Shown here in pieces: positions 5,930 through 63,723 of a DNA stretch of 64,000 nt. Position 1 is the first letter of the stretch. Every line of letters starts with the position of its first letter. The stretch comes from Candidatus Dojkabacteria bacterium. GTDB taxonomy: Bacteria; Patescibacteriota; Dojkabacteria; B142; OLB20. The position numbers and the translations under genes were made by a program. The notes beneath the pieces are model-generated. The model saw nothing but the letters and a program-made list of their open reading frames with translations, was not told the DNA's origin and did no database searches. The stretch is taken from positions 415,559 through 479,558 of the forward strand of contig CP129475.1 in assembly GCA_030583785.1 (NCBI GenBank). Reading direction: 5' to 3'.

Positions 5930-6493
5930 TTACACTCTACCTAAATACTCGTATGTTTGTGTGTTGATTTTAATAATTTCTCCTTCTTTTAGGAAAAGTG
6001 GGACTTTGATTTGCAATCCGGTTTCCATAACCGCATTCTTTAAGGCGTTTTGAGCTGTGTTTCCAGCTACTGCAGGATCTGTTGTTTGAATTTTTAGATC
6101 TACAGTTTTTGGCAGTTCGATACTCACTGGGATTCCATCGATATACAAAGTAATAACTTTAGATCCTTCGATCATGAAGAGAAGTTCGTCTTGGATTTGT
6201 TCAACTGGGAGCTCGAACTGAGAGAAGTCCTCGTTACTCATAAAGTATGCATTTGAATCATCTGCATACAAGAACTGTGCTGATTGTTTTGCAACATCTG
6301 CCTCCTGGACACTTTGTTCGTTTGTGAAAGTTTTCTCCGTAATAACGCCGTTTTCAATATCTCTTACTTTAAGCCGGATAGTTGCTTGGCCTCTTCCCTT
6401 TTTAATATGCTGATATTTTAATACTACATATTTACGATCATCAAGTTCAAAGACTGAACCGTTTCTTAAAGCATTAGATGCGATAGTTCCCAT
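5930..6493 (-). CDS. efp: Translation elongation factor P; start set at MGTIASN (the longer ORF to 6625 runs through a tRNA gene)
   Basis: MGTIASNALRNGSVFELDDRKYVVLKYQHIKKGRGQATIRLKVRDIENG matches the EF-P N-terminal KOW-like domain and the protein is 188 aa. The loop reads KKGRGQA where E. coli has KPGKGQA. Confidence 0.85.
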   Translation of the reverse strand: MGTIASNALRNGSVFELDDRKYVVLKYQHIKKGRGQATIRLKVRDIENGVITEKTFTNEQSVQEADVAKQSAQFLYADDSNAYFMSNEDFSQFELPVEQIQDELLFMIEGSKVITLYIDGIPVSIELPKTVDLKIQTTDPAVAGNTAQNALKNAVMETGLQIKVPLFLKEGEIIKINTQTYEYLGRV

Positions 6494-6517
6494 AGAATTT
6501 TTTAAATTTATTAAAAA

Positions 6518-6603
6518 TGCTGGTGGTGGGGGTCGAACCCACACGCGGGGTAAGCCGCACGGGATTTTGAGTCCCGCGTGTCTGCCAATTCCACCACACC
6601 AGC
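6518..6603 (-). tRNA. tRNA-Leu(CAA), type II (long variable arm); 3' CCA not encoded
   Basis: The minus-strand read is GCTGGTG-TG-GTGGAATTGGCAGACAC-G-CGGGA-CTCAAAA-TCCCG-TGCGGCTTACCCCGCGTG-TGGGT-TCGACCC-CCCAC-CACCAGC-A. It has a 7-bp acceptor stem, a 5-bp anticodon stem and anticodon CAA. The discriminator A is followed by TTT, not CCA. Confidence 0.85.
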
Positions 6604-6663
6604 AAGAATTAAGCAGTGTTTGCAAGGATTATAAGTGATGAGTAGGAAAAAGACAAAACGAAA

Positions 6664-7553: not shown

Positions 7554-8225
7554 ATGTTTTTGAAGTATAAAAAATACCTAACAAACTTTTTTTATTTCGC
7601 TGCCGGTTTAAGTTTGCTGGTAAGTATTGTATTAGTTGTTTGGCTTCTGCAAAAGACAGACGGAAATATTTTAGGACTCCATTGGTGCAACGGCATATCT
7701 CCCTGTACAGAAGGTCCGCAACCCCCCGTAACAGTTACTGCATTCATACGAATTGTAGATGTTAAATTCACTGTTTATCCCGAAAAAAGGGAGCCTGCAA
7801 TTGGAAACTGGGCTACCATAGCCGATGTTAGACTTCAAGATTGCAACAATTCAAACAATTTCACTTATAATGCCATTGTCACAAATTCAATTGGTAAGGG
7901 CACGGTTGTGATCCCCTCTTCTAATCCTTTACCTGAAGGTGACTATAGATTTTTCATTCGTGGTTTTTCTCATCTAAACGAAGAATTCAACTGTTATACA
8001 TTAGATACTATCGGACCAGATATTGACCTGACACTTGAAGGCAAAGAGCTTCTTGCGGGCGAGGTTAGTAACAGTTATGATAATTATGTAAATTCCCTAG
8101 ATATGTCTGTGCTTATAGGTAAGCTGTTTACTAATGACTACAAAAGCGATCTTAATCAAGATACTTTGGTAAATGGCCTTGATTTTGGCAACCAAATTTA
8201 CAACCTATTTAAAAATGGCGACTAA
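7554..8225 (+). CDS. Membrane-anchored secreted protein with C-terminal dockerin-like module
   Basis: An N-terminal TM anchor (FFYFAAGLSLLVSIVLVVWLL) is followed by a beta-rich region and a C-terminal duplicated segment (SYDNYVNSLDMSVLIGKLF ... SDLNQDTLVNGLDFGNQIYNLF) matching the dockerin repeat pattern D.N.D..VN..D...L...L. Confidence 0.5.
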   Translation: MFLKYKKYLTNFFYFAAGLSLLVSIVLVVWLLQKTDGNILGLHWCNGISPCTEGPQPPVTVTAFIRIVDVKFTVYPEKREPAIGNWATIADVRLQDCNNSNNFTYNAIVTNSIGKGTVVIPSSNPLPEGDYRFFIRGFSHLNEEFNCYTLDTIGPDIDLTLEGKELLAGEVSNSYDNYVNSLDMSVLIGKLFTNDYKSDLNQDTLVNGLDFGNQIYNLFKNGD

Positions 8226-8228
8226 TCG

Positions 8229-10148
8229 ATGAAACTATCATATAAAATTCTGCTTTCTTCAATAACTTTCTTTTTGTTTTTCTTAATTGGAAACAGCAAA
8301 GCACAAGCAGGGTCTTTTTACTTCTCACCTGCTAATGCCAACCTGATTCAAGGCTGTATCAATGAAGTTGTCGTCATGGTTGATACTGCCGGTGCAAATT
8401 CAAACGCAGCAGATATTGAAATTACTTATAATCCTGCTCAGATACAGGTCTTAGATTCAGACCTTATCACTCCTGGGGTGCAGGTTATCCCCGGTAACGC
8501 CTATCAGGCATATGTTTACAACAATGTAACACCCGGGGTGATTAAAGTCGCTGCTGGTTCTTTTATCGGTGACTTGAACGGAGTTGCAACGCTCTTAAAA
8601 ATACAATTTCAATCAATTGGAGCCACGGTAAGCTCTGGTTTTACAATTAACTTTACAGGACCCGGCAATACACTTGATAGTAATATTGCAGAAACAACTA
8701 CCAGCGATGATCTTTTAACCTCAGTAACAAACGGATTTTATACTTTCTCTAGTGGAAGTTGCATCGCTGACACTACACCACCAACAATCAGTTTTACAAA
8801 TCCAGTTAGTAATGCTTCTGGTGTAGGGCCGTCTGCAAATCTAGTTATCACCTTGTCAGATAATCAAAGTGGCGTTGATATTGACTCTGTTGTTGTAACC
8901 TTTAATGGAGTACCCTACCAAAATGGCGATGCAGGATTTAATTTTACCGGAAGCCCAGGAAGCTATGTCATCACGATTACGCCAGTTGGAGGAATTCCTC
9001 AAGGGGTTGCCTCAACTCTTGTAGTTCAGGCAAAAGATCTTGCCGGAAATAGCGCTAGTAGAATCATGAACTTTAATGTTCCGGCAGCCCCGATAGTTAC
9101 TCCCGGACCAACACAACCGCCTGTCCAGCAAGATACAGTTGCCCCAATTATTACACCAGAAGACCCTCAAGATGGGTCACAGGTTGAAATAAATACAAAT
9201 CTAAACATCAATATCACAGACGATGCCAGTGGTGTTAATCTCGGAAGTCTGATTCTTATATTGAACGGTAAACAGTATAAGTTTAATAGTCCACAAGTAA
9301 GTTACTCAGGCGATCCAAATAATTACACATTTATACTTGATCCAGAATCACTTCTGCCAGCAAACAGTCTTTCATACTTAACGATTTTTGTTAAGGACAA
9401 TGCCGGCAATGCATCAATAAAGACTATTAGCTTTGGACCAGACCTGAGCAAACTACCCGACACAGATACTCCAGATTGTCTATGCCCTACCCCTACATCA
9501 CCTCTACCTGATTCATATACTGATGTTGTCCGAATCTACCAATCTATAAACACAATACTACCATCAAACCTTAAATCCTTAGGCTTGCCGGGTTTCATCT
9601 CAGCTTTATTAGCCTTACTAACTGTGCTTGCAATGCTCAGCCTGCTAAAGATTCCAGATCTACTTCTTTTCTTGTTTACCAAAGGAAACAATCGACCTTG
9701 GGGTGTTGTTTATCAAGAGGATAGCGGAGAACCCGTTGCGGGAGCAAAAGCAATATTGAAAAGTATGGAAACAGAGGCATTTATAGAAAAATCAGTTACC
9801 GACTTTCAAGGAAGATACCAATTTGATCAACCTGCTGGTGATTATATGTTGCATGTTTCAAAGAACGGTTTCGGCGAAAAGGAATTAGGCATTAGGCACG
9901 AAATAAACAGTCAAATTGATTACATCGACCTGGCCGTTGATAATACCGGACCTATAATGCTAGTTATGAACTTTATTAAAAAGATTATCAGGTTTATCCA
10001 AAAACAACATCTGGCTTTCGCCTCTGCAGGTCTTGTCTTATCAATCGTATCTTATATGTTTGTGCCGACAGCCATTGCTCTGCTTCTAACAATCTTCTAT
10101 AGTCTTTGGATACTAATCGGGGGTACACTAACTTTTGTAAAGTCTTAA
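8229..10148 (+). CDS. Surface protein with N-terminal cohesin-like domain, two Ig-like domains, Pro/Thr linker, TM helix, CarboxypepD_reg-like (transthyretin-fold) domain and C-terminal TM helices
   Basis: A signal peptide (MKLSYKILLSSITFFLFFLIGNSKAQA) precedes a cohesin-like region (INEVVVMVDTAGANSNAADIEITYNPAQIQVLDSD...GVIKVAAGSFIGDLNGVATLLKIQFQSIGATVSSGFTINFTG). Two similar ~100-aa Ig-like repeats follow (PPTISFTNPVSNASG.../APIITPEDPQDGSQ...). Beyond a TM helix lies GVVYQEDSGEPVAGAKAILKS...FQGRYQFDQPAGDYMLHVSKNGF, typical of carboxypeptidase regulatory-like domains. Confidence 0.55.
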   Translation: MKLSYKILLSSITFFLFFLIGNSKAQAGSFYFSPANANLIQGCINEVVVMVDTAGANSNAADIEITYNPAQIQVLDSDLITPGVQVIPGNAYQAYVYNNVTPGVIKVAAGSFIGDLNGVATLLKIQFQSIGATVSSGFTINFTGPGNTLDSNIAETTTSDDLLTSVTNGFYTFSSGSCIADTTPPTISFTNPVSNASGVGPSANLVITLSDNQSGVDIDSVVVTFNGVPYQNGDAGFNFTGSPGSYVITITPVGGIPQGVASTLVVQAKDLAGNSASRIMNFNVPAAPIVTPGPTQPPVQQDTVAPIITPEDPQDGSQVEINTNLNINITDDASGVNLGSLILILNGKQYKFNSPQVSYSGDPNNYTFILDPESLLPANSLSYLTIFVKDNAGNASIKTISFGPDLSKLPDTDTPDCLCPTPTSPLPDSYTDVVRIYQSINTILPSNLKSLGLPGFISALLALLTVLAMLSLLKIPDLLLFLFTKGNNRPWGVVYQEDSGEPVAGAKAILKSMETEAFIEKSVTDFQGRYQFDQPAGDYMLHVSKNGFGEKELGIRHEINSQIDYIDLAVDNTGPIMLVMNFIKKIIRFIQKQHLAFASAGLVLSIVSYMFVPTAIALLLTIFYSLWILIGGTLTFVKS

Positions 10149-14094: not shown

Positions 14095-15258
14095 CTAAAA
14101 TTCAGCTACCTCTTCCCAACTCTTAATGATGATCTCAGGATTTATCTGAACGGTTTTAATCTTAATTCTTCGAACGGCTTCTCCTACAGTTGAGGTCACT
14201 CTAATTTCTTTGTTTGGCTGAGTATTTAATTGACATTGCGTGTATAACAAACTAATTTCTGCAGGTGTTAGCACTCTATCCCAAATATCTAGATTATCGA
14301 TTAGGCCACTCCATGGTTCTGCACCAAGAACATCTTTTGCTCCTCTACCAACTAGTAAAGTCGATGCCCCTGCGATTACACCAGGCACTCGTGGCCCCAA
14401 AAAAGTTGTACCAACAAGGTTACCATTTACAAAAAGCTGAATATCGTCTCCGTTCTCCCAGGTAAGAACCAAATGTTGCCAATCCGTTGTAGTGATATTC
14501 GAAGTAGTTTCCATTTGTTGAACAATATTGCTCACACCATTAAAAATGGTTACTCCAGCCTTAATTACCTCTGTACCCCCCCCATAAAGACCGCCAGCAT
14601 CGTAACGCATACCAAACACATCATCGTCACCGTTAGGTGGAAATGTTATTAAGAAACCTCTGTCTGTGTTAATCGTATCTGACTTTATCCAGGTTGAGAT
14701 AGAAAATGCAGTCATGCCATTAATATAATCTTCTCCGTCTGCATCTTCTAGGAAATCGTTTATTCCATCGAAACTTGCTGCAGAGTCGCACTGACCAATT
14801 ACATCTGCAGTTGGACAAGCACTCCCTGAACACTCGAAGTGTCTGTTATTACCAGAACTATCTAAAAAGGTAGTTGAAGCAGGGGGATCATCAAACTTGA
14901 GAGAAAGAACATTCCCTCCTCCATTATCTCCAACCTCTTCTGGGATATCAGTTATTACATATTCGCAGGTTCCGTCTGCAAGAGATGAGTTTGTTGTTCC
15001 GGTAATTGATGGATCGTTTCTAATAGCATCAAGTGCTCGGTTGGCACAGGCATCGTGAATAGCTCTTGCTGATGTGCTTTCAACTACTAGATCCGTGGTA
15101 TTTACACTCGATGTACCCAACAGGATAATGCTCACAAGAAGGGTTCCCGCAACAATGCTAATCAGAATCACTGTAACTAGTGCGATGTATCCATTTTTTT
15201 TATCTGACATTGATGCTTGCGTAATAAGTTTGAGTATAGTCATTCTCTGATCTGCCAT
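14095..15258 (-). CDS. Type IV pilin-like (minor pilin/pseudopilin) protein fused to a LamG / concanavalin A-like lectin domain; probable start at MSDKKNG (about 15210)
   Basis: A short basic leader MSDKKNG is followed by a hydrophobic helix YIALVTVILISIVAGTLLVSIILL (pilin-like, no Glu5). A LamG-like domain includes FDGINDFLE...DWQHLVLTWENGDDIQLFVNGNLVG. Confidence 0.55.
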   Translation of the reverse strand: MADQRMTILKLITQASMSDKKNGYIALVTVILISIVAGTLLVSIILLGTSSVNTTDLVVESTSARAIHDACANRALDAIRNDPSITGTTNSSLADGTCEYVITDIPEEVGDNGGGNVLSLKFDDPPASTTFLDSSGNNRHFECSGSACPTADVIGQCDSAASFDGINDFLEDADGEDYINGMTAFSISTWIKSDTINTDRGFLITFPPNGDDDVFGMRYDAGGLYGGGTEVIKAGVTIFNGVSNIVQQMETTSNITTTDWQHLVLTWENGDDIQLFVNGNLVGTTFLGPRVPGVIAGASTLLVGRGAKDVLGAEPWSGLIDNLDIWDRVLTPAEISLLYTQCQLNTQPNKEIRVTSTVGEAVRRIKIKTVQINPEIIIKSWEEVAEF

Positions 15259-15709
15259 CTGGATTTACATAGCTAAGAGTTAGGGCCACCCTAACTACAC
15301 CTTTGGTTCCCGGTCTTGATAAGTTAGTTACAAGAAAATTATCAACCGATACTCTGTTCGAGCTTAAATTAACGGGAGGAAAGAATTTCTCTGTCATGCT
15401 AAGTGTGTTTCCACTCAAGGCAATTGTAGTTGGATCAACTGCGGCTGTTACCATATCGAGTTGAATCTGGTTACTACTAAGTCCTGCAGAAGGTAATATG
15501 ATTGCTTCTGAATCACGAACCGATTGAGATATCAACTGTAGTATCTGCATAGCTTGCTGATCGACTTCTGCAACTGTGGCTGCCCGTGCTCTGGCAAATA
15601 TTATCTGCGTAAAGACAAGAGTTATTATAGTCAACACAACAGCGGCTATCGCTGTGTAAAGTAGCACTTCAATTAATGTAAAAGCTTGTTTGTGCTTGTT
15701 ATGATCCAT
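15200..15709 (-). CDS. Type IV pilin-like protein (prepilin-type N-terminal methylation domain)
   Basis: The leader MDHNKHKQA is followed by FTLIEVLLYTAIAAVVLTIITLV, the class III signal/pilin N-terminus with Glu at +5. It has a small 169-aa body. Confidence 0.75.
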   Translation of the reverse strand: MDHNKHKQAFTLIEVLLYTAIAAVVLTIITLVFTQIIFARARAATVAEVDQQAMQILQLISQSVRDSEAIILPSAGLSSNQIQLDMVTAAVDPTTIALSGNTLSMTEKFFPPVNLSSNRVSVDNFLVTNLSRPGTKGVVRVALTLSYVNPDGRSENDYTQTYYASINVR

Positions 15710-17235
15710 TAATTTGGTTGTAGTATATAAAACTCGTTACTATTATCCTGATTTGTCAAAAATATTCTATCAATAGATGGCTGATAAAAAATTCCTGTAG
15801 CATTACCAGGCAAGTTCAAATCTCCCACGAAAACAGGTGAAGCTGGAGTTGTGTAATCTAAAACCAGAAACTCTTGGGCTGCGGACTGATTAGCAACAAA
15901 AAGTCGATTAAATAATGGGTCATAAGCTAGGTCGTTCACCTGGCCACCCGTGCTATAGGTACTCTGGACCACAAGAGATGTTGGTGTAGAGGCACTAACT
16001 GCAACTAGGGTGCCATCAGCTCTGCCAACAAACATTTGTGAACCATCCATAAGAATAGTTCGAGCAATACTCCTTCCAGCAAGATTCAATGAACCGGCTG
16101 CAGAAATTGAACCCGGATTAGTTATATCTAAAATCTGAATCTCTGCAGAACCGCTGTTTGTTGCCAAGTATGCGTAGTTTCCGTAAATTGCAATATCGTA
16201 AACTGTGTTTGGAATATTAAAGCTACCTAATAAAACCGGTGAAGCCGGGGTGGCAATGTTGTAAATGTAAAATTCTGGCTGTCCACCGCTGACTCTACCA
16301 GCATAGAGCCTTGTACCATCAACTCTAACAGCATAAATGTTTTGATTTGTAGCTAAATCGATATTACTTGAATTCGTTGGCGCATTTGGATTTGTAACAT
16401 TAAAAACACGAATCTCTGCATTATTTGCAGACGAAGCTAAATAAAGATAATTTGCTCCACTGTCAGCCAACATGAATCCATTACTGGCAGGAGATGTAGT
16501 TCCGAGAGGAGCAGGTGATGCCGGATTTGAAATATCAAATATTCTGAGTACAGATGCTAGCTGCAATACATAAGCAAAATTACCATTAACAACAACATCG
16601 ATAGCATCATTATTTCCTGCAAAGTTAACCGAAGTAGTTACTGCTGGATTAGCCCAACTAGCGGTTGGTGTTGGTGATGGTGTTGGCGTCGGTGAATCTG
16701 TTGGTAACGGAGTTGCTGATGGTGTTGCTGTTGGTGTCGGTGTCGGTGTATTTGTTGGTGTTGGGGTTGGAGTTGGTGTAGGTGTCGGTGTTGCCAGTCT
16801 GCCCCAATCGCTGATTTCCGTTGATATTGTTACAGATCTGTTTATACCCGTTGGTTCTTGGCTCCAGTTGACAACTGCTGTAACCTGCTTTCGATAAGCG
16901 TCAATCGAGCTTACGGTTATGCTTCTGCTATATTCCCCTACTGTATCGGAAGAACCACTTAGAGCCCAAACACCTCCGGAAATTGTGATACCATGAACCC
17001 CGTCAGGTAGGTTTGAAAAGTCTTCTTCGGCAATATTTCTTGCAGCCTCTATGGCTTCGTCGGCTAAGAATGAGGCTCTGGCAGCATTGCCCGAAGCATA
17101 TATTGATTCTTGAGAGAAAGAAAGTAAGGCAACAACAGAGAATATTAATAACCCTAGCAATGCTAAAGCCAAAAGAACCTCTACAAGAATTGCTGCCTTG
17201 AATTGTCTCTTTTCTTTTCTCATTTTAATAATCAA
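15709..17235 (-). CDS. Large pilin-like protein: prepilin-type N-terminus + Thr-Pro-rich linker + LVIVD-repeat beta-propeller
   Basis: The N-terminus reads KRQFKAA/ILVEVLLALALLGLLIF. The TPTPTPTPTPTPTNTPTPTPTATPSATPLPTDSPTPTPSPTPT linker is encoded by GGTGTT-type hexamer repeats at about 16655..16795. At least 5 repeats follow of the pattern hydrophobic-x-I/V-F/L-D/N-I/V-T/S-N-P-x-x-P (LRIFDISNPASPAPLG, IRVFNVTNPNAPTNSS, FYIYNIATPASPVLLG, IQILDITNPGSISAAG, LVLDYTTPASPVFVG), which is the LVIVD repeat. Confidence 0.65.
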   Translation of the reverse strand: MIIKMRKEKRQFKAAILVEVLLALALLGLLIFSVVALLSFSQESIYASGNAARASFLADEAIEAARNIAEEDFSNLPDGVHGITISGGVWALSGSSDTVGEYSRSITVSSIDAYRKQVTAVVNWSQEPTGINRSVTISTEISDWGRLATPTPTPTPTPTPTNTPTPTPTATPSATPLPTDSPTPTPSPTPTASWANPAVTTSVNFAGNNDAIDVVVNGNFAYVLQLASVLRIFDISNPASPAPLGTTSPASNGFMLADSGANYLYLASSANNAEIRVFNVTNPNAPTNSSNIDLATNQNIYAVRVDGTRLYAGRVSGGQPEFYIYNIATPASPVLLGSFNIPNTVYDIAIYGNYAYLATNSGSAEIQILDITNPGSISAAGSLNLAGRSIARTILMDGSQMFVGRADGTLVAVSASTPTSLVVQSTYSTGGQVNDLAYDPLFNRLFVANQSAAQEFLVLDYTTPASPVFVGDLNLPGNATGIFYQPSIDRIFLTNQDNSNEFYILQPN

Positions 17236-17659
17236 TTACTCCTCTATTATTTATACTTATTACCCATTGCTCGGACTCTGGATTTGTTATTGTTATTGAT
17301 CCAGTATTTGATGTATTGCCTATTACGGGATTAAAAATTACTTCGCTTAATCCGGTGAATGCAAGCTCGTTAGAAACAGTTGTAATCTCATCAAAGTCAG
17401 GATTTCTGGTTAAGTAAGTTTGACCTCGAAAAACCGTAATCGAACCGTTCTGGAAATATACCCCCCAATATGAATCGTTTTCGCCTGTTTGAGATAAAAC
17501 CTGGGCCCTTCTTAACGATTGTACAGAAGCCTGTACCGCAACATCTAAATCATTTGATCCTACAATCCGACCTAGAAATGGTGCCGATACTGCAAATATT
17601 AGAGAAAACAGCGAAATCGCCAGTAGAACCTCGATTAATGTAAATGCTTTGATCCTCAT
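17225..17659 (-). CDS. Type IV pilin-like protein (prepilin-type N-terminus)
   Basis: MRIKA/FTLIEVLLAISLFSLIFAVSAP is a canonical FTLIE pilin N-terminus with Ala at -1. The protein is 144 aa. Confidence 0.75.
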   Translation of the reverse strand: MRIKAFTLIEVLLAISLFSLIFAVSAPFLGRIVGSNDLDVAVQASVQSLRRAQVLSQTGENDSYWGVYFQNGSITVFRGQTYLTRNPDFDEITTVSNELAFTGLSEVIFNPVIGNTSNTGSITITNPESEQWVISINNRGVIDY

Positions 17660-17663
17660 AATC

Positions 17664-19058
17664 CTAACTACCAGAATTATCTTCTATATAAATTTCTTCT
17701 ACCCAGCCTCTAGGTTTACCGCTAGTATTAACGATTAAATACCAACCATTACTTTTTCCTTCATATAACAAGGTTCTTTCTTCACTAATTGTCTCTATAA
17801 CATTACCGTCTGGTTGATTGTATAACTCTATTGTTCGGAACTCGTCCTTAATGGTTATCTGTCTGAAGATCTGCATAGTAGGAACCGGTGTAGCTGTAGA
17901 TGTATTAGTTGCACTGGTATATCTGGCCTGACCTACGCCACCCACCAGATTATAAACAGGAAGGATCACAGATAATGCAACAAAAACGACTCCTAGCCAA
18001 ACAGCTATCAACATTACTGGCTCAAGTAGAACAGAAAGATTTTTACTTGATGTATCAATTCTGTCTTCAAATCTTTCTCCGATTTGTTCAAGAGAATGAA
18101 CAAAATTTCCTGACCTTTCTGCAGCAATTAAAATCTGCTGTACCGGCAGAGGGATTATTTTTCCGATACCCGAGTAGCTTTTAAAAGTATCCGCAAAGGA
18201 ATAGCCATCTTCTATTCTCATGGCCAGATGTAAGTAGAAATTTCGGTAATGATAGAAATCAGATGACTTTACGAGCGAATTGACGGCATCTAAGATAGGA
18301 AGACCTGCTTTAAGCAATGTTCCTAGTAGAAAACCCATTCTGGCAACTTCGATATTGGTAACAATTATTCTCAGTGGTTTTATAGCGAAAATCATTTTTT
18401 GACCAATATGTTTTGATTTTTCGCGCACAAACAAGAATCTGTAAAGAAGGATCACAAAAACAAAAATTAGAGGGACAACAATTATTCCGTATTGAGACAA
18501 GAAGTCACCTAACCCAATAAGGAGCGAGGTTATAACTGGCATCTCGATATTTAATGCTGAATATACTGCTGAAAGTCTTGGGATAACAAAAATAAATATT
18601 CCCAAACCTAAGACTAGAGATAATCCGAGTATAATCGCAGGATAAAGCATTGCCGAAAGAAGTTTTGAACGAAACATTCTATTCTTTTTGATCTGTTCAA
18701 CAACCAAAGCAAGGTTCTCTGGTAACTGTCCGGATTCTTCACCAATTCTGACGAAAGTTACCAAATAACTTTGTACAACTTTATTTCTATCCAGTGATCT
18801 CCAGAGGGGATAGCCGCTGTCGATATCATCGATTACGCTATCAATTATTTCTAAGACCTGCGGTGTCCTGGTATCGAATCGGACTGCATGCAGTGAAGAT
18901 ACAATATCTAACCCTGAATCAACTAGCAAAGCTAGATTTTCGATAAAATCTTCAAGCTCGCGAGATATTCCACCCAATGGAGATGTAAGAGCAAGAAGTA
19001 TCTTCTTATAGAAGGGCTTCTTCTTTTTTTTTGAGAATTCTGTGCTTGACCTTATCAT
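17664..19058 (-). CDS. pilC: Type IV pilus assembly platform protein PilC/GspF family (two T2SSF domains) with extra C-terminal SH3b-like extension
   Basis: It is polytopic with duplicated T2SSF-like halves (LSAMLYPAIILGLSLVLGLGIFIFVIPRL... and ...GNFVHSLEQIGERFEDRI...LLEPVMLIAVWLGVVFVALSVILPVY). About 90 extra residues follow, ending NGWYLIVNTSGKPRGWVEEIYIED. Confidence 0.8.
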   Translation of the reverse strand: MIRSSTEFSKKKKKPFYKKILLALTSPLGGISRELEDFIENLALLVDSGLDIVSSLHAVRFDTRTPQVLEIIDSVIDDIDSGYPLWRSLDRNKVVQSYLVTFVRIGEESGQLPENLALVVEQIKKNRMFRSKLLSAMLYPAIILGLSLVLGLGIFIFVIPRLSAVYSALNIEMPVITSLLIGLGDFLSQYGIIVVPLIFVFVILLYRFLFVREKSKHIGQKMIFAIKPLRIIVTNIEVARMGFLLGTLLKAGLPILDAVNSLVKSSDFYHYRNFYLHLAMRIEDGYSFADTFKSYSGIGKIIPLPVQQILIAAERSGNFVHSLEQIGERFEDRIDTSSKNLSVLLEPVMLIAVWLGVVFVALSVILPVYNLVGGVGQARYTSATNTSTATPVPTMQIFRQITIKDEFRTIELYNQPDGNVIETISEERTLLYEGKSNGWYLIVNTSGKPRGWVEEIYIEDNSGS

Positions 19059-19066
19059 CAGTTTTG

Positions 19067-20746
19067 TTATTTAGTTTTTGATTTAGTTTGCTTCGCTTCA
19101 GTAATCACTGGGGGAGCTACCCTAAGCACCTCTTCGATTGTTGTAATACCCTGTTTAACTTTAACGATTCCATCTTCAAACATAGAATGTGCTCCCTGCT
19201 CTACTGCTAATCTCCAGATATCTGCTGTTGAGGGATCTGCAAGAATAAGGTCTTTCATTTCTCGAGTCATGTTTATGAACTCGAAAATTGCTGATCTGCC
19301 AATATATCCAGAGTTATGACAAGCTGCACAACCTTTTGCCTCATATAGGCTTACTTCATTTTCAGAGAAAACGCCTTTTATTGCCGGAAATTCTTTTTCG
19401 AGGTCTGCCCTTTTAACATTTTTACTTATTCTGCAAGTTTGGCAAATCTTGCGAACAAGTCTTTGAGCAACGATCAGTTCAAGAGTCGAGGCAAGCAAGA
19501 AAGACTCTACTCCCATATCTCTAAGTCTAGGGATTGCAGTGGCAGCATCATTTGCATGAAAAGTAGACAAAAGTAAATGTCCTGTTAATGCAGCATTAAC
19601 TGCAATCTCGGCAGTTTCTTCGTCACGGATTTCTCCGACAAGAATGACATCTGGATCTTGCCTTACAATAGATCGCAACCCTTTAGCAAATGTTAGATTG
19701 GTCTGGGTGTTAACCTGAATATGGTTTACGCCCTTAATCTTATATTCAACCGGATCTTCAATTGTCGTAACATTTACCCCAGGATTATTTAAAATTCTTA
19801 GTACTGAGTAAAGAGTTGAGGTTTTTCCGGAACCGGTCGGACCGGTGACCAAAATCATTCCGAAAGGCCTTTTGGAGGCTGCTATTAAAAGATCTTGATC
19901 ATTTACAGAAAGACCAATTTCTGAAAGAGAAAATCTTTTTACATACTCGGATAAGATTCTGATTGTAATTTTTTCACCATCAAGTGTTGGAATTACTGAC
20001 ACACGCATATCAACAGCCTTGTCACCTTTTCGGATTCGCATTGAACCGTCTTGTGCTGAGGCATGCTCATCGATGCGCATATGTGCATTAACTTTGATCA
20101 GGTTTAAAATGTTTTCATAATATTTCTTTTCGATTCTGGCAGCTTCTTGAAGAACTCCATCAATTCTAATTCTGATGATAACTTCTGTCTCTTGAGGTTC
20201 AAAGTGGATATCTGACGCTCTATCAACTATTGCATCGTCAATAATTTCCACTACGACATCGGGTGCAATACGATCGGATTGTTCGATAATCTTTTTAAAC
20301 CTTGTTTCAAGAGGTTCACGATAATGGACAAGTAAGCTATCAATGTCTTCTGGAAGTGCGTACGCCAGCTTAACATTTCTTGCCTTGTAGACCTGCTTTA
20401 ATAAAGAAACAATCTCTGCATTAGTAGGATCGTCTGTGGCAACTACAACTTCTGATTTATTGTCGACATATTGAACTACTCTGTACTTTTTACCGATTTC
20501 TTTTGGTATAGAAAGGACTTCTTGCCTGGAAGGAATATTCGTATTCAAGTCAGCATAATTAATCCCTAGACTTTCTGCAACTGCTTGACCGATTAAATCT
20601 TTTGTAACTATTCCCTGGGAAAGTAAATACTCAAGAAGATCTCCTTTAGTTTTTGCAACAACCTTTTCGGCAGATACTAATTCTTCTTCTGAGATGTAAC
20701 TGCCTTTTAGCAGTATTTGACGGATTGCTTTATTGTCGAGTTTCAT
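19067..20746 (-). CDS. pilB: Type IV pilus assembly ATPase PilB / GspE family
   Basis: It has an N-terminal T2SSE_N domain and Walker A GPTGSGKTSTLYSVL. Asp box, His box and a tetracysteine-like CQTC...CAAC are present. Confidence 0.9.
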   Translation of the reverse strand: MKLDNKAIRQILLKGSYISEEELVSAEKVVAKTKGDLLEYLLSQGIVTKDLIGQAVAESLGINYADLNTNIPSRQEVLSIPKEIGKKYRVVQYVDNKSEVVVATDDPTNAEIVSLLKQVYKARNVKLAYALPEDIDSLLVHYREPLETRFKKIIEQSDRIAPDVVVEIIDDAIVDRASDIHFEPQETEVIIRIRIDGVLQEAARIEKKYYENILNLIKVNAHMRIDEHASAQDGSMRIRKGDKAVDMRVSVIPTLDGEKITIRILSEYVKRFSLSEIGLSVNDQDLLIAASKRPFGMILVTGPTGSGKTSTLYSVLRILNNPGVNVTTIEDPVEYKIKGVNHIQVNTQTNLTFAKGLRSIVRQDPDVILVGEIRDEETAEIAVNAALTGHLLLSTFHANDAATAIPRLRDMGVESFLLASTLELIVAQRLVRKICQTCRISKNVKRADLEKEFPAIKGVFSENEVSLYEAKGCAACHNSGYIGRSAIFEFINMTREMKDLILADPSTADIWRLAVEQGAHSMFEDGIVKVKQGITTIEEVLRVAPPVITEAKQTKSKTK

Positions 20747-34055: not shown

Positions 34056-37000
34056 CTAATTTATTATGAAGTAGTTAAATATTGTATCAGTATCAATTGA
34101 GTTTTCGATTTCTATCGTAAACCCGACACCTGGTTTAATATTTACAACCCTATATTGGACAAATTGGTTTGCAGTAAGTTGAACAATTGAATCTGAATTT
34201 ACCTGAATGTTGTTAACCTCTACTCTAACAGACCCGGCTGAAATAACTGCCTTACCGGCAGCCTGATTCTGCCCTGTTCCAAGAGATAGTTTTCTTTCTA
34301 TCAATAAGCTGTTTGTAACAGCTTCGTTAGCGTAAAAGACTCCTAGAACATCAAGATCACCTTCTACGACTAGAGCACCTTTTACTACTAACTGATCAAT
34401 CGAGATTGCTAATGAAGTACTACCAGGATTATCGATAATCTCAAATAGATTATCTCCATTTGCTAAGGTAAATGATTCGATTTGCAGAGCAGAGATTCCG
34501 TTGTTTCTTTCTCCAAAGACTTCACTGCCAACATATATTGGAGACACATAGGCATTGATTCTTCCAATTTCTGGTAGAACTGTTGCTTCTTCTTGAATCA
34601 TCTCTGCCAGAATTCTTGCTTTCTCATCCTCAATATTAAGTTCCTTGTAGAGTTCATTATTAACTAGATTTAACAAAGTCTGTGCGTCCTCGTTACTAAG
34701 CCCCTGTCTGATTAACTCATCAATATAATCATAAGCTTCTATTTTGTAATTAACTATGTTTTCACGAACCAGCTCGGAATCTCCAGCAGTGAAGAATGTC
34801 GAGTCAAAATCCTCGAGCGCTCTACCAACAACCATGCCAGGTTTTGTTGCTCTCATTACATATCCAGGAATGGATGCTGGAGCAAGGAAATCACCTCGTT
34901 TTATCGGACCGTTTTCTTCCGAGATATATACTATGCTTGATCCTCTCATTAATGTTGGGACAGATGCAGTCGACCCATTAACTAGCTTATCGATGTTCAC
35001 CTTTGGAGAAACTGAAGCAACACCAGCTATTAGATTTGAATTCAAGTTGTTAGACTTAGATACCTCAAGAGGATTATCTGTGTAAGAAACAACTTGACCC
35101 GGCAAGACTAGCTCTTCTTCTTTGGCGAAGAACATTTCGTTAGTCGATTCAACAGAGATTGTGTTGTTGATCACAATTGGGTCAATTGGTTTGATTATTG
35201 GCGCTTCTGATTGATCTGGAGCTTCAATCTCGGGGTCGAAAGCTAAACTAGAACTGTCTTCACCCATTACGAACTCTGGAATTCCATCTCCGTCTGCATC
35301 GAATTCGAACTTGCCTGTTTCAGGATTAAATCTAATAACACCATATCCGTTGCTACCAATTGCTATAGAATTTTCATCTGATGGGTCGAACCAAGTATTA
35401 TTGATCATCACTAGAATGCTTATCTTGCCCGATTCTTTTGTCCAAGCTTCCAGAGCTGTTCCGATAATCATACCTCTGCTTGTTGCTTTCTGTCCTCTAC
35501 CTGCATTCGATGATACCGAGATAGGATCACCGATAGAAATATCCTGCGATTCTGTAGATATTTTGACGGGGACTCTTCCTGCCAAGGCAAGCGGTTTGAA
35601 GTAAGCCAAATCTAGTTTATTATCTGGTGTAGATGGGTTTAGTACCAACCCTGGATTTGTTGAAATAATTCCCAATACATTATTCCGTGAAGAAGTTGTT
35701 GCTTTTTCAACAAGAAATCTATTGTACAGATTCTCGTCTTCGTGTTGCTTGTTTGATACGCTGACGATATCGCCTGCACTTATTGATGTATCATCGGTTT
35801 TGACATATTCTGCAATGTCCGGAGTACCCGAACCGTTAGTCATATCAACCCATTCATAGTTGTTCGAAGAATTCTGTCTGCACAAGTAGATTGAACCATT
35901 CTCCCCAGAGTCCCGATTATAGATAGTAGTGCCAACGGTTGAAGAATCGCATGTAGGAGCATTACCTGTCGCTACATTAGCATATACTATTCCAGCAGAT
36001 GTTCCTGAGATGACTATATTTCCACTCACAGTGATTGAATCACTTAGTTGAAACTCACTGTCAGTGCCGTTCCACTTCAATGTTTCTGTATTTGTTCCCC
36101 CGAAGTTGATTGTGATATCACCTGAAGCAGTTGTATCTTGATCTGTCTGGAGATAAAGGTCACCATCTGTGAAGATTCCTCCTTCAACCCCTAAAAGGCC
36201 TGCCACAAACATATCATCTCCAGATAACGAGAAACTACCGTGAGCAATGGTTGATGTTGCACTTGTTGAAGCACCAACGATTAAATCGCCTCCCACATAA
36301 ACACGGTCTCCAACTTCAAGGTCATCTGTGACTCGCATATCACCTGCAGATGGAGTACTTACATAGCTAAATGCAGCATCTGCACCAATTATTATTGCTT
36401 CTGTATTTGAGAAATATCCGTTTGTTCCATTGGTCCATAGTGCGCCTGCCAGGAGATCAATATTTGATGATCCATTATAGAAATAGAGGTTCGTTCCGTT
36501 CCACCATAGATCTCCATTAACAGGTGCAGATGGATTCACACCAGATGAAGATGATAGATTAATCTGAGCACTTGCTGTTGTTGCTGCTTTGATATCTAAC
36601 CAAGCATCTGGATTCTGTACACCAATTCCGACCCTATCTGTCCCACCAGATGCATTGATCAGATACGAATCGGTATCGCCCTCAATTATAAAATCTACAG
36701 CAGCACCATTTTGGTTAAATACAAAGTTTGCATCATTGAGTTCAAGAGTATCTGCGTTCGTATATTCGAGTCTTCCAGTGTTGCCATTTGCAGAATAGAA
36801 ATCGATTTTTCCATTTGATCCTGAACCGACACCAACTCTCACCAGATTATTGTTTACATCAACACTAAAGGCAGCAGTAAGTCCAGTACCGCCAATTGCA
36901 AAGTTATCTGTGGTACTAGTTAGATATGTAACCGTACCTGCATCAGTCAAGAGTGGATTGAATCCGCAGTTGGGTTGACTTGCATTACAAACCAATTTAT

Positions 37001-40000
37001 CACCCCAGTATAGATTATCAGTTGCAGCATTTGCTTGAGCAACAGTTGATAAGAAATTGTTTGGATTCGAACTACCTAGATGAATAAATTCTGTAACTTC
37101 AAGCCTATCGTCAACAACAACATAGCCATTATTATTCGCTCGCAGAATTAGATCTTCATCGCTAGCTAAATCTCCTGCGACAATGTATAGAGGCGAATCT
37201 GATTTAATGTAACTTGCAGTAGAGTTTGTGAATACGATGTCATTTGCAATCTGCACATCTCCAATACTTGTAAATGTGGCAGGCACATTGGCAGTGATGC
37301 CTACTGAAGATACAGTAAAAATCTCGGTACCATCAATTGCAAGCTCAAGTAGATTTCCACTAAACCCACTTGCAGGATTGACATACAATGCTGTCTCTGA
37401 TCCGTCGAGTTGTGTTCCCAATGTGGTTGTTCCTCCAAAAAGGAAATCGCCGTAGGTTTCGCTGGCTACATCATTAATGTAACCAAATTGATTAGCTCCA
37501 AAGCCGAATTCAAACCTTTGATCTGTTGCGTTGTCGTATCGCATAAAGAAGTCGGCGTTGCTTCCAAAGAACATTGATCTATCACTTGCTAGAAGAATGT
37601 CTCCACCAGTAAACTCCCAGCGATCATCGGTTGTAAATGTTATTGCTCCAGTATCTCCATCACTGGCAAACATATTCAAGACGGCATTGGCTGTTGATCC
37701 AGTGCCGATTCTAACGGTATTATCGCTAACATCAACACTAAAAGCAGCTCCAAGTGTGCTTCCACCGACTGCAAAGTCATCAGTTGTCTGGGTTAAATAA
37801 GAGATTGAACCTGAATCGGTGAATAATGAACCTCCTCCAAATGAGATACCGCAATTTGCTTCGCTAACATCACAAAGTAGGTCCTCTCCCCAATATAGAT
37901 CACCATTGGCACCAATACCAGTTGTGCCCACACTAAGGACATCAGAACTGTTTGTTCCTAAGTTGAGTCTGCCATCTATCTGTAGATTACCCGAATTATC
38001 AAGCCTAGCAACCTCCGTGGACAAGTCATTAACGAAACTCAACGCATAGTTTGTGTCACTAGTAATACTTAGGAGTACTCTCATATCAATCTCGTTATCA
38101 CCAGCGTTGTAATAATTACCTCGAAGTATTAAAGCACCTGAATTTGCTGTTGATCCTGTTGTTGAGTTGTCGATGATCATATTAAAAGGAGTTGTTCCTT
38201 GCACTGTTAAGTCTCCACCCACCCTGAAATTATCATCTGTTGCAAGAAGGTTGGTTCCTGCGTCATATAGATTTGTGTCGTTACCAATAACCAATCCACC
38301 GCTAGAGCCTGTCGAGATAACCCTTAACTGCTGATCGACCTGAAGATTGCTTGAAGTTACTAATAACTGAGTTCCCCCATCATAAAGATAAGTATCGTTG
38401 CCTATCTCAATACCAGCTGCAGACCCTGTTGTATTCAGCCTAAGTCTTCCGGTGCTGGGCTGGAAGAAGAATGGCCCTGTATCCGCACTGGCTCCAAGCA
38501 CAAAATTATCGGATGTACTAGTAAGGTATGTGAATGTGCCAGAGTCTGTAAATAACGAGCCAGTCCCGGCTAATAGATCAACAGTCTGACTGCCATCATA
38601 AAAGTTCAGACTAGTTCCATTAAACCAAAGGTCACCTGACCCGGGAGAACTTGGATTAGTTCCTGGCGAGAGATTAATCTGAGCGTTTGATGAAGTTGAA
38701 GCTGCAATATCAAGGAATGCTGTAGGAGCAGTAACTCCACCAATGCCGACCTTTCCTCCTGAGCTTTGCAAGGCAAGATCACCAGTGCTAATTATACTTA
38801 ATACATTAGTGGAAGTGTTGTAACTAATTGCCCCTTCGTCTGTCGTTGAAGTTCCAATATGTAGAGTACTTGGACCTAAGAATAACTCTTGGAAACGCCT
38901 TGTGTTTGATCCCAGATTGAAAGACTCGTTCGTGGAAGGCATTAAACTATTTGAAATCTCAAAACCAGTTAATGATGATCTCCAGGCAAGAACCTGTGGG
39001 CTTGTGCCTCCAAATTGAATTAAGGCATCTCCAGAAGCAGTATTTACATCTGTCTGTATATAAAGGTTGCCGTCAGAATAAATATTACCTTCAACTCCAA
39101 GATCTCCAGCGACGAACAAGTCGTTTCCATTCAGAACAAAACCACTATCGGCAATAGTAGATGTTGTTGACCCGATAAGTAGATCACCTCCACTCACATA
39201 AACATCGGCACCTGCAAATTCAAAAGTATCACTATCGAGAAATACTATGCTTCCACTATTTGTAGCATCACTTGCATAAAATTGTATCGTAGGATCATTG
39301 GAATCATTAGCGCCGTCACCAATTCTAACTAAGTTGGCAGCAACATCAACACTAAATGGAGCAACTAGCGTGTTATTTGCACCAACTGCAAAGTTATCGG
39401 CCGTCTGAGTTAAGTAAGTAATTGCGCCTCCATCTGTAAATAAAGAGGATCCACCAAAGGCGATGCCGCAGTTTGGTTGACTTACCATACAAATAAGATC
39501 CTCACCCCAGTAGAGGTCGCCATTTGCCGATGCACCAGTTGTGCCGACACTAAGTAAGTCACTAGTATTTGTTCCAAGATTCAATCGACCAGAAATCTGA
39601 AGGTTGCCCGATTGGTCTATACTTCCGACTTCACTTGCTTGAGCAGAGTTGTAAAAGCTTAATCTGTAGTCTGTATCGCTAACAATGTTTAATAACAAAC
39701 GCATATCTATCTCTGAGTCAGAAACGTTGAAATAATTTCCTCGAAGAATTACAGCACCTGAATTTGCAGTTGCCCCAGTGGTTGTATTATCAATTACAAT
39801 ATTTCCTGGAGTTGTTCCGCTCACAATCAAACTATTACCTCCGGTTATACTCGCATTTCCACCTGCAACTTGAAGAGCATCGTTAATATATACAAGATAA
39901 GAACCACCAGCACTTAATTCAAGATTTGCTCCTGTTTGGGAGATGAAACCGTCTGTAAGGGCTAGAGTACCTGCTCCAACATATATTCCATTTTCAACAT

Positions 40001-62234: not shown

Positions 62235-62310
62235 GCTGGAATAGCTCAGTTGGTAGAGCATACCCATGGTAAGGGTAAGGTCTCGGGTTCGACCCCCGAT
62301 TCCAGCTCCA
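62235..62310 (+). tRNA. tRNA-Thr(GGT), CCA encoded
   Basis: GCTGGAA-TA-GCTC-AGTTGGTA-GAGC-A-TACCC-ATGGTAA-GGGTA-AGGTC-TCGGG-TTCGACC-CCCGA-TTCCAGC-T-CCA. The fold is hand-built with anticodon GGT. Confidence 0.85.
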
Positions 62311-62363
62311 AAGTAAAGCAAGTTTGTAGAAAATAAATCTTGTTTTGGTATAATGGCGATAAC

Positions 62364-62449
62364 GCAGGGATGGCAGAGCGGTCAAATGCTCCAGACTGTA
62401 AATCTGGCGTCGCGAGACTACGGGGGTTCGAGTCCCTCTCCCTGCACCA
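62364..62449 (+). tRNA. tRNA-Tyr(GTA), type II with long variable arm, CCA encoded
   Basis: The acceptor is GCAGGGA/TCCCTGC, the anticodon arm CCAGA-CTGTAAA-TCTGG, and the variable arm CGTCGCGAGACTACGG. The T arm is GGGGG-TTCGAGT-CCCTC, with discriminator A + CCA. Confidence 0.85.
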
Positions 62450-62572: not shown

Positions 62573-62580
62573 AATCAGTT

Positions 62581-62656: not shown

Positions 62657-62736
62657 AAATAATCCACCACTTCTTGTTAATTCAAGATTTCTGCAAAATA
62701 TGACAACAGAATGCCATGGCAATGGTATAATTCATC

Positions 62737-63462: not shown

Positions 63463-63494
63463 GTTGCTTGGCTGGACTATCTGCAGGTTTATGG

Positions 63495-63717: not shown

Positions 63718-63723
63718 GCTCAT

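Follow-up and report, generated by a model that had tools for sequence, protein, structure and literature searches.

Few known protein-protein interactions match the strength of cohesin-dockerin pairing, which is best known for gluing cellulosomes together. The present analysis concerns a cohesin and a dockerin encoded side by side in a Dojkabacteria genome. The two genes concerned lie within the window (the whole stretch of DNA that was analysed, 64 kb), and the first-pass annotation had described them as encoding a dockerin-like and a cohesin-like module on separately membrane-anchored proteins that might assemble a surface complex. Both open reading frames, and the peptide strings quoted from them, are present exactly as given (7554..8225 and 8229..10148). 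Their features are as follows (window positions; evidence in parentheses).

7554..8225, + strand: gene 1, dockerin protein of 223 aa (ORF list; family of 22 or more homologues)
7587..7649, + strand: gene 1 aa 12-32, N-terminal hydrophobic segment (hydropathy; AF2 helix 2-33; family comparison)
7722..8042, + strand: gene 1 aa 57-163, conserved beta-sandwich, transthyretin/Ig-like and X-module-like (alignment; AF2 strands 69-158 at pLDDT ~90; Foldseek)
8043..8222, + strand: gene 1 aa 164-223, dockerin module (Pfam; PDB profile matches; loop statistics; AF2 helices)
8229..10148, + strand: gene 2, membrane protein of 639 aa with N-terminal cohesin (ORF list; homologues; domain map)
8229..8306, + strand: gene 2 aa 1-26, signal peptide MKLSYKILLSSITFFLFFLIGNSKAQA with A-Q-A site (sequence and hydropathy; cleavage site inferred from the -3/-1 rule)
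8298..8774, + strand: gene 2 aa 24-182, cohesin module (AF2 model; Foldseek; family Pfam matches; conservation map)
8769..9434, + strand: gene 2 aa 181-402, stalk of two Big_5 bacterial Ig-like domains (Pfam Big_5, 38.2 bits, two stretches)
9591..9647, + strand: gene 2 aa 455-473, transmembrane (TM) helix 1 (hydropathy; position conserved in homologues)
9702..9893, + strand: gene 2 aa 492-555, CarboxypepD_reg beta-sandwich between TM segments (Pfam 39.0 bits, cut-off 32.3)
10008..10139, + strand: gene 2 aa 594-637, C-terminal hydrophobic region, about two TM helices (hydropathy; similar in homologues)

Gene 1 runs from its hydrophobic segment through the beta-sandwich to a C-terminal dockerin. 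The window's dockerin scored 13.1 bits against Pfam Dockerin_1 (PF00404; E = 0.12, cut-off 22.9), homologues 55-57% identical to the window protein scored 26.6-30.0 bits, above that cut-off, and 18 of the 22 family members matched Dockerin_1 at E <= 0.01. When the gene-1 family profile was run against PDB sequences, all six matches were dockerin-bearing chains. The region comprises two tandem segments of ~22 residues, as in dockerins, with an EF-hand-like Ca2+ loop and then a helix in each: segment 1 (aa 170-192) has a non-canonical loop, and segment 2 (aa 199-219) has a canonical D-x-N-x-D-x-x-x-N-x-x-D loop whose residues (D199-x-N201-x-D203-x-x-x-N207-x-x-D210) are conserved in 45-48 of 49 sequences. 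The AF2 model places helices at 181-189 and 208-221, in a region of low confidence (pLDDT 44-70). The earlier remark that the first loop is degenerate was right as to positions 1 and 3, which are non-canonical, with an apparent two-residue insertion after an invariant A-G-[E/D]; positions 5, 9 and 12 (D176, N180, D183), however, are kept in 46-49 of the 49 sequences. An EF-hand in place of a dockerin was rejected, since neither an EF-hand nor any other Ca-binding Pfam family matched the dockerin region of any family member.

The cohesin was less readily recognized by sequence. Single-sequence searches with the window proteins returned nothing relevant from the PDB (phmmer), nothing from NCBIfam, and from Pfam one sub-threshold dockerin; the window's cohesin module had no Pfam match even at E <= 10 (PF00963 cut-off 24.1 bits). 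Homologous modules did better, with 15 of 24 matching Pfam Cohesin at E <= 1 (best 2.6e-7). One of them, P0009, is 49% identical to the window's module (E = 1e-44) and passes the Pfam threshold at 28.2 bits, covering profile positions 17-138 of 139. The cohesin-family HMM also recovers the cohesins of locus L039 (E = 1e-18 to 1e-24), whose own Pfam scores are 25.1 and 36.3 bits. Run with HMMER on PDB sequences, the family profile brought up no cohesin (best LptA, E = 0.016). Because sequence profiles alone were insufficient, it was the fold search that settled the module's identity. An AlphaFold2 model of gene 2 aa 24-182 (pLDDT 92.9, pTM 0.88) is all-beta, in keeping with the nine-stranded, jelly-roll beta-sandwich of cohesins, and a Foldseek search of the PDB gave 46 matches at E <= 1e-3, all but one of them cohesins (TM up to 0.71/0.79). 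These matches span types I, II and III as well as non-cellulosomal cohesins, the top one being 6kgf_C (E = 1.6e-8, TM 0.71/0.76). The specificity of this fold match led us to reject a generic Ig domain.

Within the cohesin, the model is type I-like: it has no helix insertion, and type I and archaeal cohesins match it better than types II and III do. Cys43 and Cys178 are invariant and probably form a disulfide. The most conserved stretches in the conservation map are SNAADIEIT, TLDSNIAE and DLLTSVTN. Going by classical cohesin topology, the first two presumably fall on strands 3 and 8 of the 8-3-6-5 sheet, the face that canonically binds dockerin. Taken together, these analyses confirm the cohesin and dockerin identities far beyond chance, as the first-pass annotation had proposed for both modules. 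It had named a lack of HMM hits, or confident assignment to another family, as grounds for giving them up; neither was the outcome, and no competing family emerged.

Between the hydrophobic segment and the dockerin of gene 1 lies a beta-sandwich whose PEKR..GNW.T and G.SHL motifs are invariant and whose cysteine pair (C97, C147) is nearly so; no Pfam family matched this sandwich in the window protein or the family members searched. The earlier reading had overlooked this conserved domain, which together with the dockerin resembles an X-module-dockerin (XDoc) dyad, and likewise the spread of the gene pair in Patescibacteria. In a Foldseek search, the gene-1 model came out closest to three XDoc chains, 4wi0_B, 5g5d_B and 4u3s_B (E = 3e-5 to 6e-5, ~166 aligned columns), with TM-scores of only 0.3-0.4 and a pLDDT of 44-70 for the inter-domain linker as for the dockerin. 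The sandwich alone also resembles transthyretin-like and CarboxypepD-like folds. Its HMM match is contiguous with that of the dockerin in every relative, such that the two travel together as in an XDoc dyad, and relatives of 330-890 aa carry the unit at their C-terminus. The classical partners of XDoc dyads are type II or III cohesins, which have beta-flaps and a helix between strands 6 and 7; the gene-2 cohesin model has no helix. We also considered the sandwich as a copy of the CarboxypepD_reg domain of gene 2 and rejected this, as no sequence similarity was detectable by family HMM.

Gene 2 is clearly a membrane protein, and its relatives keep the signal peptide, the N-terminal cohesin and the C-terminal TM segments. 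Its Big_5 domains form an internal repeat with 30% identity. In public records, the proteins of such gene pairs are labelled "hypothetical", "Ig-like" or "carboxypeptidase regulatory-like".

Gene 1 and gene 2 are separated by 3 nt, and gaps in relatives are typically -1 to a few nt; no terminator was found between the window's two genes, and the sites returned by a promoter/terminator scan were no commoner than in shuffled sequence. The side-by-side placement noted earlier recurs in relatives. A dockerin gene lies directly upstream of a cohesin gene in all 32 related loci with DNA; these represent several lineages of Patescibacteria and three or more unrelated neighborhoods (EF-P/histidine kinase, GAPDH/CHASE2 and DnaB/L31/RF-1). 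A directly downstream cohesin gene occurs in 25 of 25 GTDB loci with DNA and likewise in L001, L003, L004 and L006; starting reciprocally from divergent cohesin genes, we found the pair in 4/4 loci. The gene-1 family comprises ~115 representative clusters at 50% identity for E <= 1e-30, and 278 for E <= 1e-10. Mean pairwise identity is highest for the dockerin (51%), followed by the cohesin (43%) and the beta-sandwich (32%), and lengths and other domains vary among relatives (gene 1, 190-766 aa; gene 2, 300-1026 aa). The extra repeats of gene-1 relatives are Fn3, Pur_ac_phosph_N-type and DUF4215, with no catalytic domain in the relatives examined. In a related three-gene chain the last gene encodes a cohesin joined to PG_binding_1, and four other Patescibacteria loci (L034, L038, L039 and L043) hold several cohesin and dockerin genes each. 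The gene pair is unannotated and kept across many related lineages. Strong indirect support, drawn from gene order and conservation, exists for genes 1 and 2 being a putative cognate pair.

We consider it reasonably probable that this cassette provides the cell surface with a minimal cohesin-dockerin docking system of non-cellulosomal type, with the two genes co-transcribed and their products predicted to bind. Under this model, translation of the genes would probably be coupled as well. Gene 2 would serve as the anchor, held in the membrane by its C-terminal TM helices after cleavage of its signal peptide and showing a single cohesin atop a stalk (two Ig-like domains plus a Pro/Thr-rich linker). 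Gene 1 would be the ligand, an exported protein whose constant C-terminal sandwich-dockerin unit could dock onto the gene-2 cohesin, probably in a Ca2+-dependent manner. In relatives, the same logic of an anchor plus an XDoc-like tag may display variable N-terminal surface repeats (Fn3, DUF4215), and since relatives display such repeats, tethering of surface, adhesion-type proteins rather than enzymes seems the most likely role. Several observations weigh against the docking model: the window's own modules are sub-threshold in Pfam, the gene-1 dockerin is modeled with low confidence and the XDoc matches have low TM-scores, dockerin and cohesin distances show no pair-specific correlation, and the cohesin is type I-like, whereas XDoc dyads classically pair with types II and III.

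The alternative that survives best, though we regard it as unlikely, is that both modules are genuine and do not bind each other: each would have separate partners elsewhere, or the dockerin would be a Ca2+-stabilized structural tail, with co-transcription reflecting a common envelope process. Consistent with this, a mirror-tree style comparison of pairwise distances gave r = 0.67 for dockerin versus cohesin and 0.65 and 0.68 for control module pairs, so nothing particular to this pair stands out over common phylogeny; by itself the comparison speaks neither for nor against co-evolution. The multi-gene loci L034, L038, L039 and L043 could cross-react, and our view of the source genome spans 64 kb, so partners elsewhere are conceivable. 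However, strict one-to-one adjacency through changing neighborhoods would be surprising unless the two were directly linked in function, the dockerin and cohesin are precisely the best-conserved parts of their proteins, and the window holds one copy of each module.

Flanking genes encode an M16 peptidase, EF-P, a histidine kinase, and PAS-GAF, LamG, LVIVD and T2SSE/F proteins. Within the 64-kb window we found no glycoside hydrolase (GH) or carbohydrate-binding module (CBM), no dockerin or cohesin other than those of genes 1 and 2, and hence none of the hallmarks of a cellulosome or amylosome (dockerin enzymes, a multi-cohesin scaffoldin, a CBM). The earlier judgment that this is not a cellulosome holds within the window, and surface docking in minimal form, with no connection to cellulose breakdown, is the probable function of the cassette. 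Gene 2 might instead be a small cellulosome-like or amylosome-like anchoring scaffoldin that recruits dockerin-bearing, carbohydrate-active enzymes encoded elsewhere, gene 1 being one client of several. A part in carbohydrate degradation has been predicted for Dojkabacteria (PMC7038595), and the amylosome of Ruminococcus bromii shows that cohesins and dockerins can organize enzymes outside cellulosomes (PMC4611034). Against such a scaffoldin, which we find distinctly improbable, stand the contents of the window, the single cohesin per anchor, the gene-1 relatives examined, which have no catalytic domain, and the conservation of the cassette as a fixed pair.

The proposal that both proteins are separately membrane-anchored is secure for gene 2; in gene 1, the hydrophobic segment at aa 12-32 may be a signal anchor or the h-region of a long, possibly cleaved signal peptide. 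A conserved (V/I)-L-G (aa 39-41 in gene 1) lies 6-13 residues past this segment in the family. If gene 1 were membrane-anchored by a tether of ~25 residues, reaching in cis to a cohesin atop a two-domain stalk would be geometrically awkward. Least probable of all, and in our view very doubtful, is a homotypic cell-cell adhesion pair in which both proteins are membrane-anchored and bind in trans between neighboring cells or epibiont/host-attached cells: the K/R-flanked hydrophobic segment of 17-21 residues in short gene-1 forms could be a stable signal anchor, and a cohesin on a long stalk is hard for a short-tethered cis partner to reach, but long gene-1 relatives have N-termini resembling classical cleavable signal peptides and the conserved (V/I)-L-G fits a signal-peptidase site.

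Returning to the docking model, the cohesin-dockerin glue would here take the form of a fixed two-gene cassette in genome-reduced candidate-phyla-radiation (CPR) bacteria with no visible cellulosome. Such a cassette offers a testable handle on surface assembly in largely uncultivated, probably host-attached bacteria, and the sizeable family puts new orthogonal cohesin-dockerin pairs on offer for protein-assembly engineering. A bolder reading, which we put forward as speculation and think unlikely, is that the cassette is a lineage-wide, previously unrecognized surface-attachment device of Patescibacteria, in which a single-cohesin socket embedded in the membrane receives interchangeable XDoc-tagged surface proteins and builds envelope structures for attachment to partner cells or substrates. 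Candidate clients of the socket are the small sandwich protein here and, elsewhere, Fn3 or Cys-rich repeat proteins and multi-step Doc/Coh-Doc/Coh-PG_binding chains. If true, the device would be important for the episymbiotic lifestyle of these ultra-small, probably host-dependent bacteria.

Such a role would fit a dockerin-containing envelope protein of the cultivated Saccharibacterium Southlakia epibionticum, SEML1_0315, which is reportedly essential in Tn-seq (PMC10633639). Compared by its published description, SEML1_0315 is like gene 1 in being a Patescibacteria envelope protein with a dockerin, but it is 927 aa long, carries Ig-like repeats and is monocistronic, with no neighboring cohesin gene in the published table (PMC10633639). 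Given these differences in architecture and context, we did not treat it as a gene-1 orthologue and cite it for context.

Cohesin or dockerin modules without a cellulosome are also found in Archaeoglobus fulgidus (cohesin 2xdh) and Clostridium perfringens (cohesin-like modules 2jh2, 2vo8 and 2w1n), and 2xdh is the second-best fold match of the gene-2 cohesin (E = 4.6e-8, TM 0.66/0.76). The precedents on non-cellulosomal cohesins and dockerins are Bayer (1999) and Voronov-Goldman (2011), both cited in PMC4611034. Those cases differ from ours in that they lie outside the Patescibacteria and have no conserved operon of a TM-anchored single-cohesin protein and a small XDoc protein.

The type II cohesin-XDoc systems of Clostridium thermocellum and Acetivibrio cellulolyticus (the XDoc of CipA with SdbA, OlpB or ScaC; 5g5d, 4wi0, 4u3s, 4fl4) are structurally closest to gene 1, the alignment running collinearly through X module and dockerin (TM 0.3-0.4), and attach a protein to an envelope-anchored cohesin, as is predicted here. 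There, however, the XDoc sits on a large enzyme-carrying scaffoldin and anchoring relies on SLH domains, and the gene-2 cohesin model lacks the helix and flaps of type II cohesins.

The ScaE system of Ruminococcus flavefaciens is a further parallel, for there, as is proposed here, a single envelope-anchored cohesin receives a C-terminal X module-dockerin (partners ScaB and CttA; type III cohesin-XDoc complexes such as PDB 4iu3/4iu2 and 2zf9). One natural ScaE partner, CttA, serves in adhesion and is not an enzyme. The significant fold matches of the gene-2 cohesin include ScaE cohesins (ranks 13, 18, 22, 44 and 45), though sequence identity is ~10-15% and the gene-2 model, closest to type I, lacks type III insertions. 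ScaE is held by sortase attachment to the cell wall, whereas gene 2 is anchored by TM helices and belongs to a fixed two-gene cassette of a CPR genome with no visible cellulosome.

Our data indicate that two adjoining plus-strand genes, encoding a dockerin protein (gene 1) and a cohesin-tipped membrane protein (gene 2), form a conserved cassette. The first-pass annotation had proposed neighboring dockerin and cohesin genes; this observation is confirmed, and both open reading frames (ORFs) are present at exactly its coordinates:

7554..8225, + strand: gene 1 ORF, 223 aa
Gene 1 aa 12-32, + strand: N-terminal hydrophobic helix (hydropathy and AlphaFold2 model)
Gene 1 aa 164-223, + strand: dockerin module
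8229..10148, + strand: gene 2 ORF, 639 aa
Gene 2 aa 181-402, + strand: two Big_5 Ig-like domains
Gene 2, between the Big_5 domains and the TM helix, + strand: Pro/Thr-rich linker
Gene 2 aa 455-473, + strand: transmembrane (TM) helix
Gene 2 aa 492-555 (window 9702-9893), + strand: CarboxypepD_reg domain (Pfam, 39.0 bits)
Gene 2 aa 594-637, + strand: about two more TM helices

The genes are spaced by 3 nt (taa tcg atg), and a scan of the sequence found no terminator-like site between them. Their nearest named relatives are the adjoining TR69_WS6001000621 and TR69_WS6001000622 (64% and 58% identity, respectively) of candidate division WS6 bacterium OLB20, a member of Candidatus Dojkabacteria, which places the window in a Dojkabacteria-like lineage of the Patescibacteria/CPR; cassette proteins carry the database names 'hypothetical', 'Ig-like domain-containing' or 'carboxypeptidase regulatory-like'.

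We scanned one genome per GTDB species for true gene 1 relatives, defined as a dockerin plus the beta-sandwich that precedes it in gene 1 (the sandwich). The scan recovered 26 loci, and in all 25 that have downstream DNA a cohesin-starting gene follows immediately on the same strand, as it likewise does in metagenome-derived loci. Reciprocally, a sandwich-plus-dockerin gene ends just upstream of divergent cohesin-gene homologues in 4/4 cases, and the pairing holds in 32/32 of all loci together. The intergenic gap in relatives is typically -1 to a few nt. Neighborhoods vary: some loci share the EF-P/histidine kinase setting of the window, and others have GAPDH/CHASE2 or DnaB/L31/RF-1. Record titles include Dojkabacteria, 'Patescibacteria group', Peregrinibacteria, Peribacteria, Falkowbacteria and Saccharibacteria MAGs (a few titles are evidently unreliable), and a gene 1 profile matched 115 clusters at E<=1e-30 and 278 at E<=1e-10 among 1.84 billion representatives. 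Relatives of gene 1 span about 190 to 766 aa, with Fn3/Pur_ac_phosph_N or DUF4215 repeats added before the sandwich-dockerin unit, and those of gene 2 about 300 to 1026 aa, with varying numbers of Ig-like and CarboxypepD_reg domains. Mean pairwise identity over 29 pairs is highest for the dockerin (51%), followed by the cohesin (43%) and the sandwich (32%); a distance-correlation test gave no specific dockerin-cohesin co-evolution signal.

The dockerin identity of gene 1 is settled by its family, despite a sub-threshold match of the window copy to Pfam Dockerin_1 (E=0.12, 13.1 bits against a cut-off of 22.9, aa 176-211). Dockerin_1 matched 18 of 22 aligned homologues at E<=0.01, and homologues with 55-57% identity exceeded the Pfam threshold (26.6-30.0 bits). 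Pfam matches of these 22 included no EF-hand family, a single FlgD_ig match being the sole non-dockerin family, and the family profile recovered exclusively dockerin-bearing chains from the PDB (4fl4_A, 1daq, 2mte, 5k39_B, 2yik, 5nrk_B). Across 49 non-identical sequences, the second Ca2+ loop is canonical (D-x-N-x-D-x-x-V-N-S-L-D), with every liganding position kept in 45-48. In the first loop, positions 5, 9 and 12 (D176, N180, D183) are kept in 46-49 of the 49 and an acidic residue follows an invariant A-G; positions 1 and 3 are non-canonical, with an apparent 2-residue insertion, and in the HMMER alignment this loop pairs with the first loop of 5k39_B, a dockerin with a comparable extension there. 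Both dockerin segments have S-L-D and then a helix, an internal symmetry that would fit a dual mode of binding.

Pfam gave no Cohesin match for the window copy of gene 2. No other part of the family is shared as widely as the ~160-aa module at its N-terminus, placed likewise in 32/35 homologues, and 15 of 24 homologous modules matched Cohesin at E<=1 (best 2.6e-7); the homologue P0009, 49% identical to the window module, scored 28.2 bits against a cut-off of 24.1 over nearly the whole profile. From the family alignment, AlphaFold2 gave a confident all-beta model (pLDDT 92.9, pTM 0.88), and 46 PDB structures matched it in Foldseek at E<=1e-3, cohesins except one. Among the matches were type I (CohA2 of C. 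acetobutylicum, E=1.6e-8, TM 0.71/0.76), type II and type III cohesins as well as 2xdh, a non-cellulosomal cohesin from A. fulgidus (4.6e-8); since the model contains no helix, type I is closest. Invariant C43 and C178 (protein numbering) probably form a disulfide. Among the best-conserved stretches (SNAADIEIT, TLDSNIAE and DLLTSVTN), the first two presumably fall on the canonical dockerin-binding sheet, going by classical cohesin topology, a placement consistent with, though not proof of, dockerin binding. The dockerin and cohesin calls of the first-pass annotation thus hold, and we regard the domain assignments of both genes as nearly certain.

The sandwich is well modelled (strands 69-158, pLDDT about 90); its PEKR..GNW.T and G.SHL motifs are invariant, and it has a pair of near-invariant cysteines. 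Alone, it resembles transthyretin-like and CarboxypepD-like folds. The best three Foldseek matches of the whole gene 1 model were X-module-dockerin (XDoc) dyads of type II complexes (4wi0_B, 5g5d_B and 4u3s_B; E=3e-5 to 6e-5, about 166 aligned columns), with TM-scores of only 0.3-0.4 and low confidence in the dockerin portion of the model. Since sandwich and dockerin are contiguous and C-terminal in every relative, we call gene 1 XDoc-like, in architecture only and with no claim of homology to known X modules. In the representative library, P0149 (2,364 aa) contains 17 tandem sandwich copies and P0181 (3,173 aa) ends in a sandwich-plus-dockerin unit. The sandwich can thus be reused as a module, and even very large proteins can bear the same docking tag.

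The two proteins had been described as separately membrane-anchored, which is secure for gene 2, while the evidence for gene 1 points both ways. Short forms have a hydrophobic segment of 17-21 residues with K/R on both flanks, favoring an anchor, whereas long relatives start with apparent classical signal peptides, favoring cleavage. All short homologues also share a near-invariant (V/I)-L-G 6-13 residues past the segment (gene 1 aa 39-41, window 7668-7676). The motif fits the -3/-1 rule of signal peptidase I sites, again favoring cleavage, and may be such a site or a different processing signal. Were gene 1 cleaved, its retention on the cell would come from docking on gene 2; if it is uncleaved, a short tether would hardly let the dockerin reach the stalk-top cohesin in cis, making a trans (cell-to-cell) interaction attractive. 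The gene 2 CarboxypepD_reg domain, flanked by the first TM helix and the two C-terminal ones, would by simple topology face the cytoplasm, an unusual placement for a normally extracytoplasmic fold. Gene 2 homologues have one to three such domains with hydrophobic segments interleaved.

We propose that gene 2 would act as a membrane-embedded anchor displaying one cohesin on an Ig-domain stalk, on which the XDoc-like tail of exported gene 1 would dock, probably in a Ca2+-dependent manner. Relatives would use this socket to display longer repeat proteins, pointing to a role in surface display or adhesion. Mutual binding of the two proteins is likely, and the overall anchor-plus-ligand model is somewhat favored, with slightly less assurance. 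A more distant locus, L039 (CAYIPT010000003.1, 2667-6416; MAG titled 'uncultured Candidatus Saccharibacteria'), has three consecutive genes, all above Pfam thresholds:

First gene, 254 aa: signal peptide (SP)-Fn3-Dockerin
Second gene, 634 aa: SP-Cohesin-Fn3 repeats-Dockerin
Third gene, 331 aa: SP-Cohesin-Gly-rich linker-PG_binding_1

This chain resembles an assembly of several steps anchored to the wall, in a different Patescibacteria lineage. It supports the anchor-plus-ligand logic, and its terminal cohesin would be fixed to the cell wall. Loci L034 and L038 have similar arrangements.

Across the 64-kb window, family HMMs found exactly one match each for dockerin and cohesin. Flanking genes encode an M16 peptidase, EF-P, a dCache-HAMP-PAS histidine kinase, PAS-GAF, LamG, LVIVD and T2SSE/F, with no glycoside hydrolase (GH) or carbohydrate-binding module (CBM) found within the window. 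The earlier judgment that this is not a cellulosome therefore stands within these 64 kb, which lack GH, CBM and any second cohesin or dockerin. About 4-10 kb from the cassette, at higher coordinates, lies a minus-strand run of envelope/surface genes (14095-20746): LamG (Laminin_G_3), LVIVD-repeat, and T2SSF plus T2SSE, the last two being type IV pilus-type machinery, in CPR (Patescibacteria) often tied to attachment or DNA uptake. Elsewhere, tRNA-Leu(caa) (6517-6604, -) lies inside the 5' end of the listed ORF 5930-6625 (-); the true EF-P start is therefore downstream, about MGTIASN, the listed N-terminal extension being tRNA read-through. A giant 2,501-aa ORF (34056-41561, -) has no Pfam match at E<=1e-3, and four tRNAs (Thr-ggt, Tyr-gta, Thr-tgt, Trp-cca) cluster at 62235-63798 (+).

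Full-text literature searches found no paper describing the cassette. The first-pass interpretation is supported, with the caveats that we infer binding and that the gene 1 anchoring evidence is two-sided. An essential envelope protein of a cultivated Saccharibacterium also contains a dockerin (PMC10633639); its architecture differs from that of the cassette proteins, so we cite it only as context. Functionally closest are R. flavefaciens ScaE with ScaB or CttA, in which a single-cohesin anchoring scaffoldin likewise takes XDoc partners; the type II cohesin-XDoc pairs of C. thermocellum and A. cellulolyticus; and the non-cellulosomal cohesins and dockerins of A. fulgidus (2xdh), C. perfringens and the R. 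bromii amylosome (PMC4611034 and its references). The domains themselves are ordinary; what is new, and open to direct testing, is their conserved CPR cassette with its architecture. Unlike these known systems, the cassette is anchored by TM segments instead of by SLH or sortase attachment, pairs an XDoc-like ligand with a cohesin that is type I-like, carries no enzymes, and occurs across Patescibacteria as a fixed operon of two genes.
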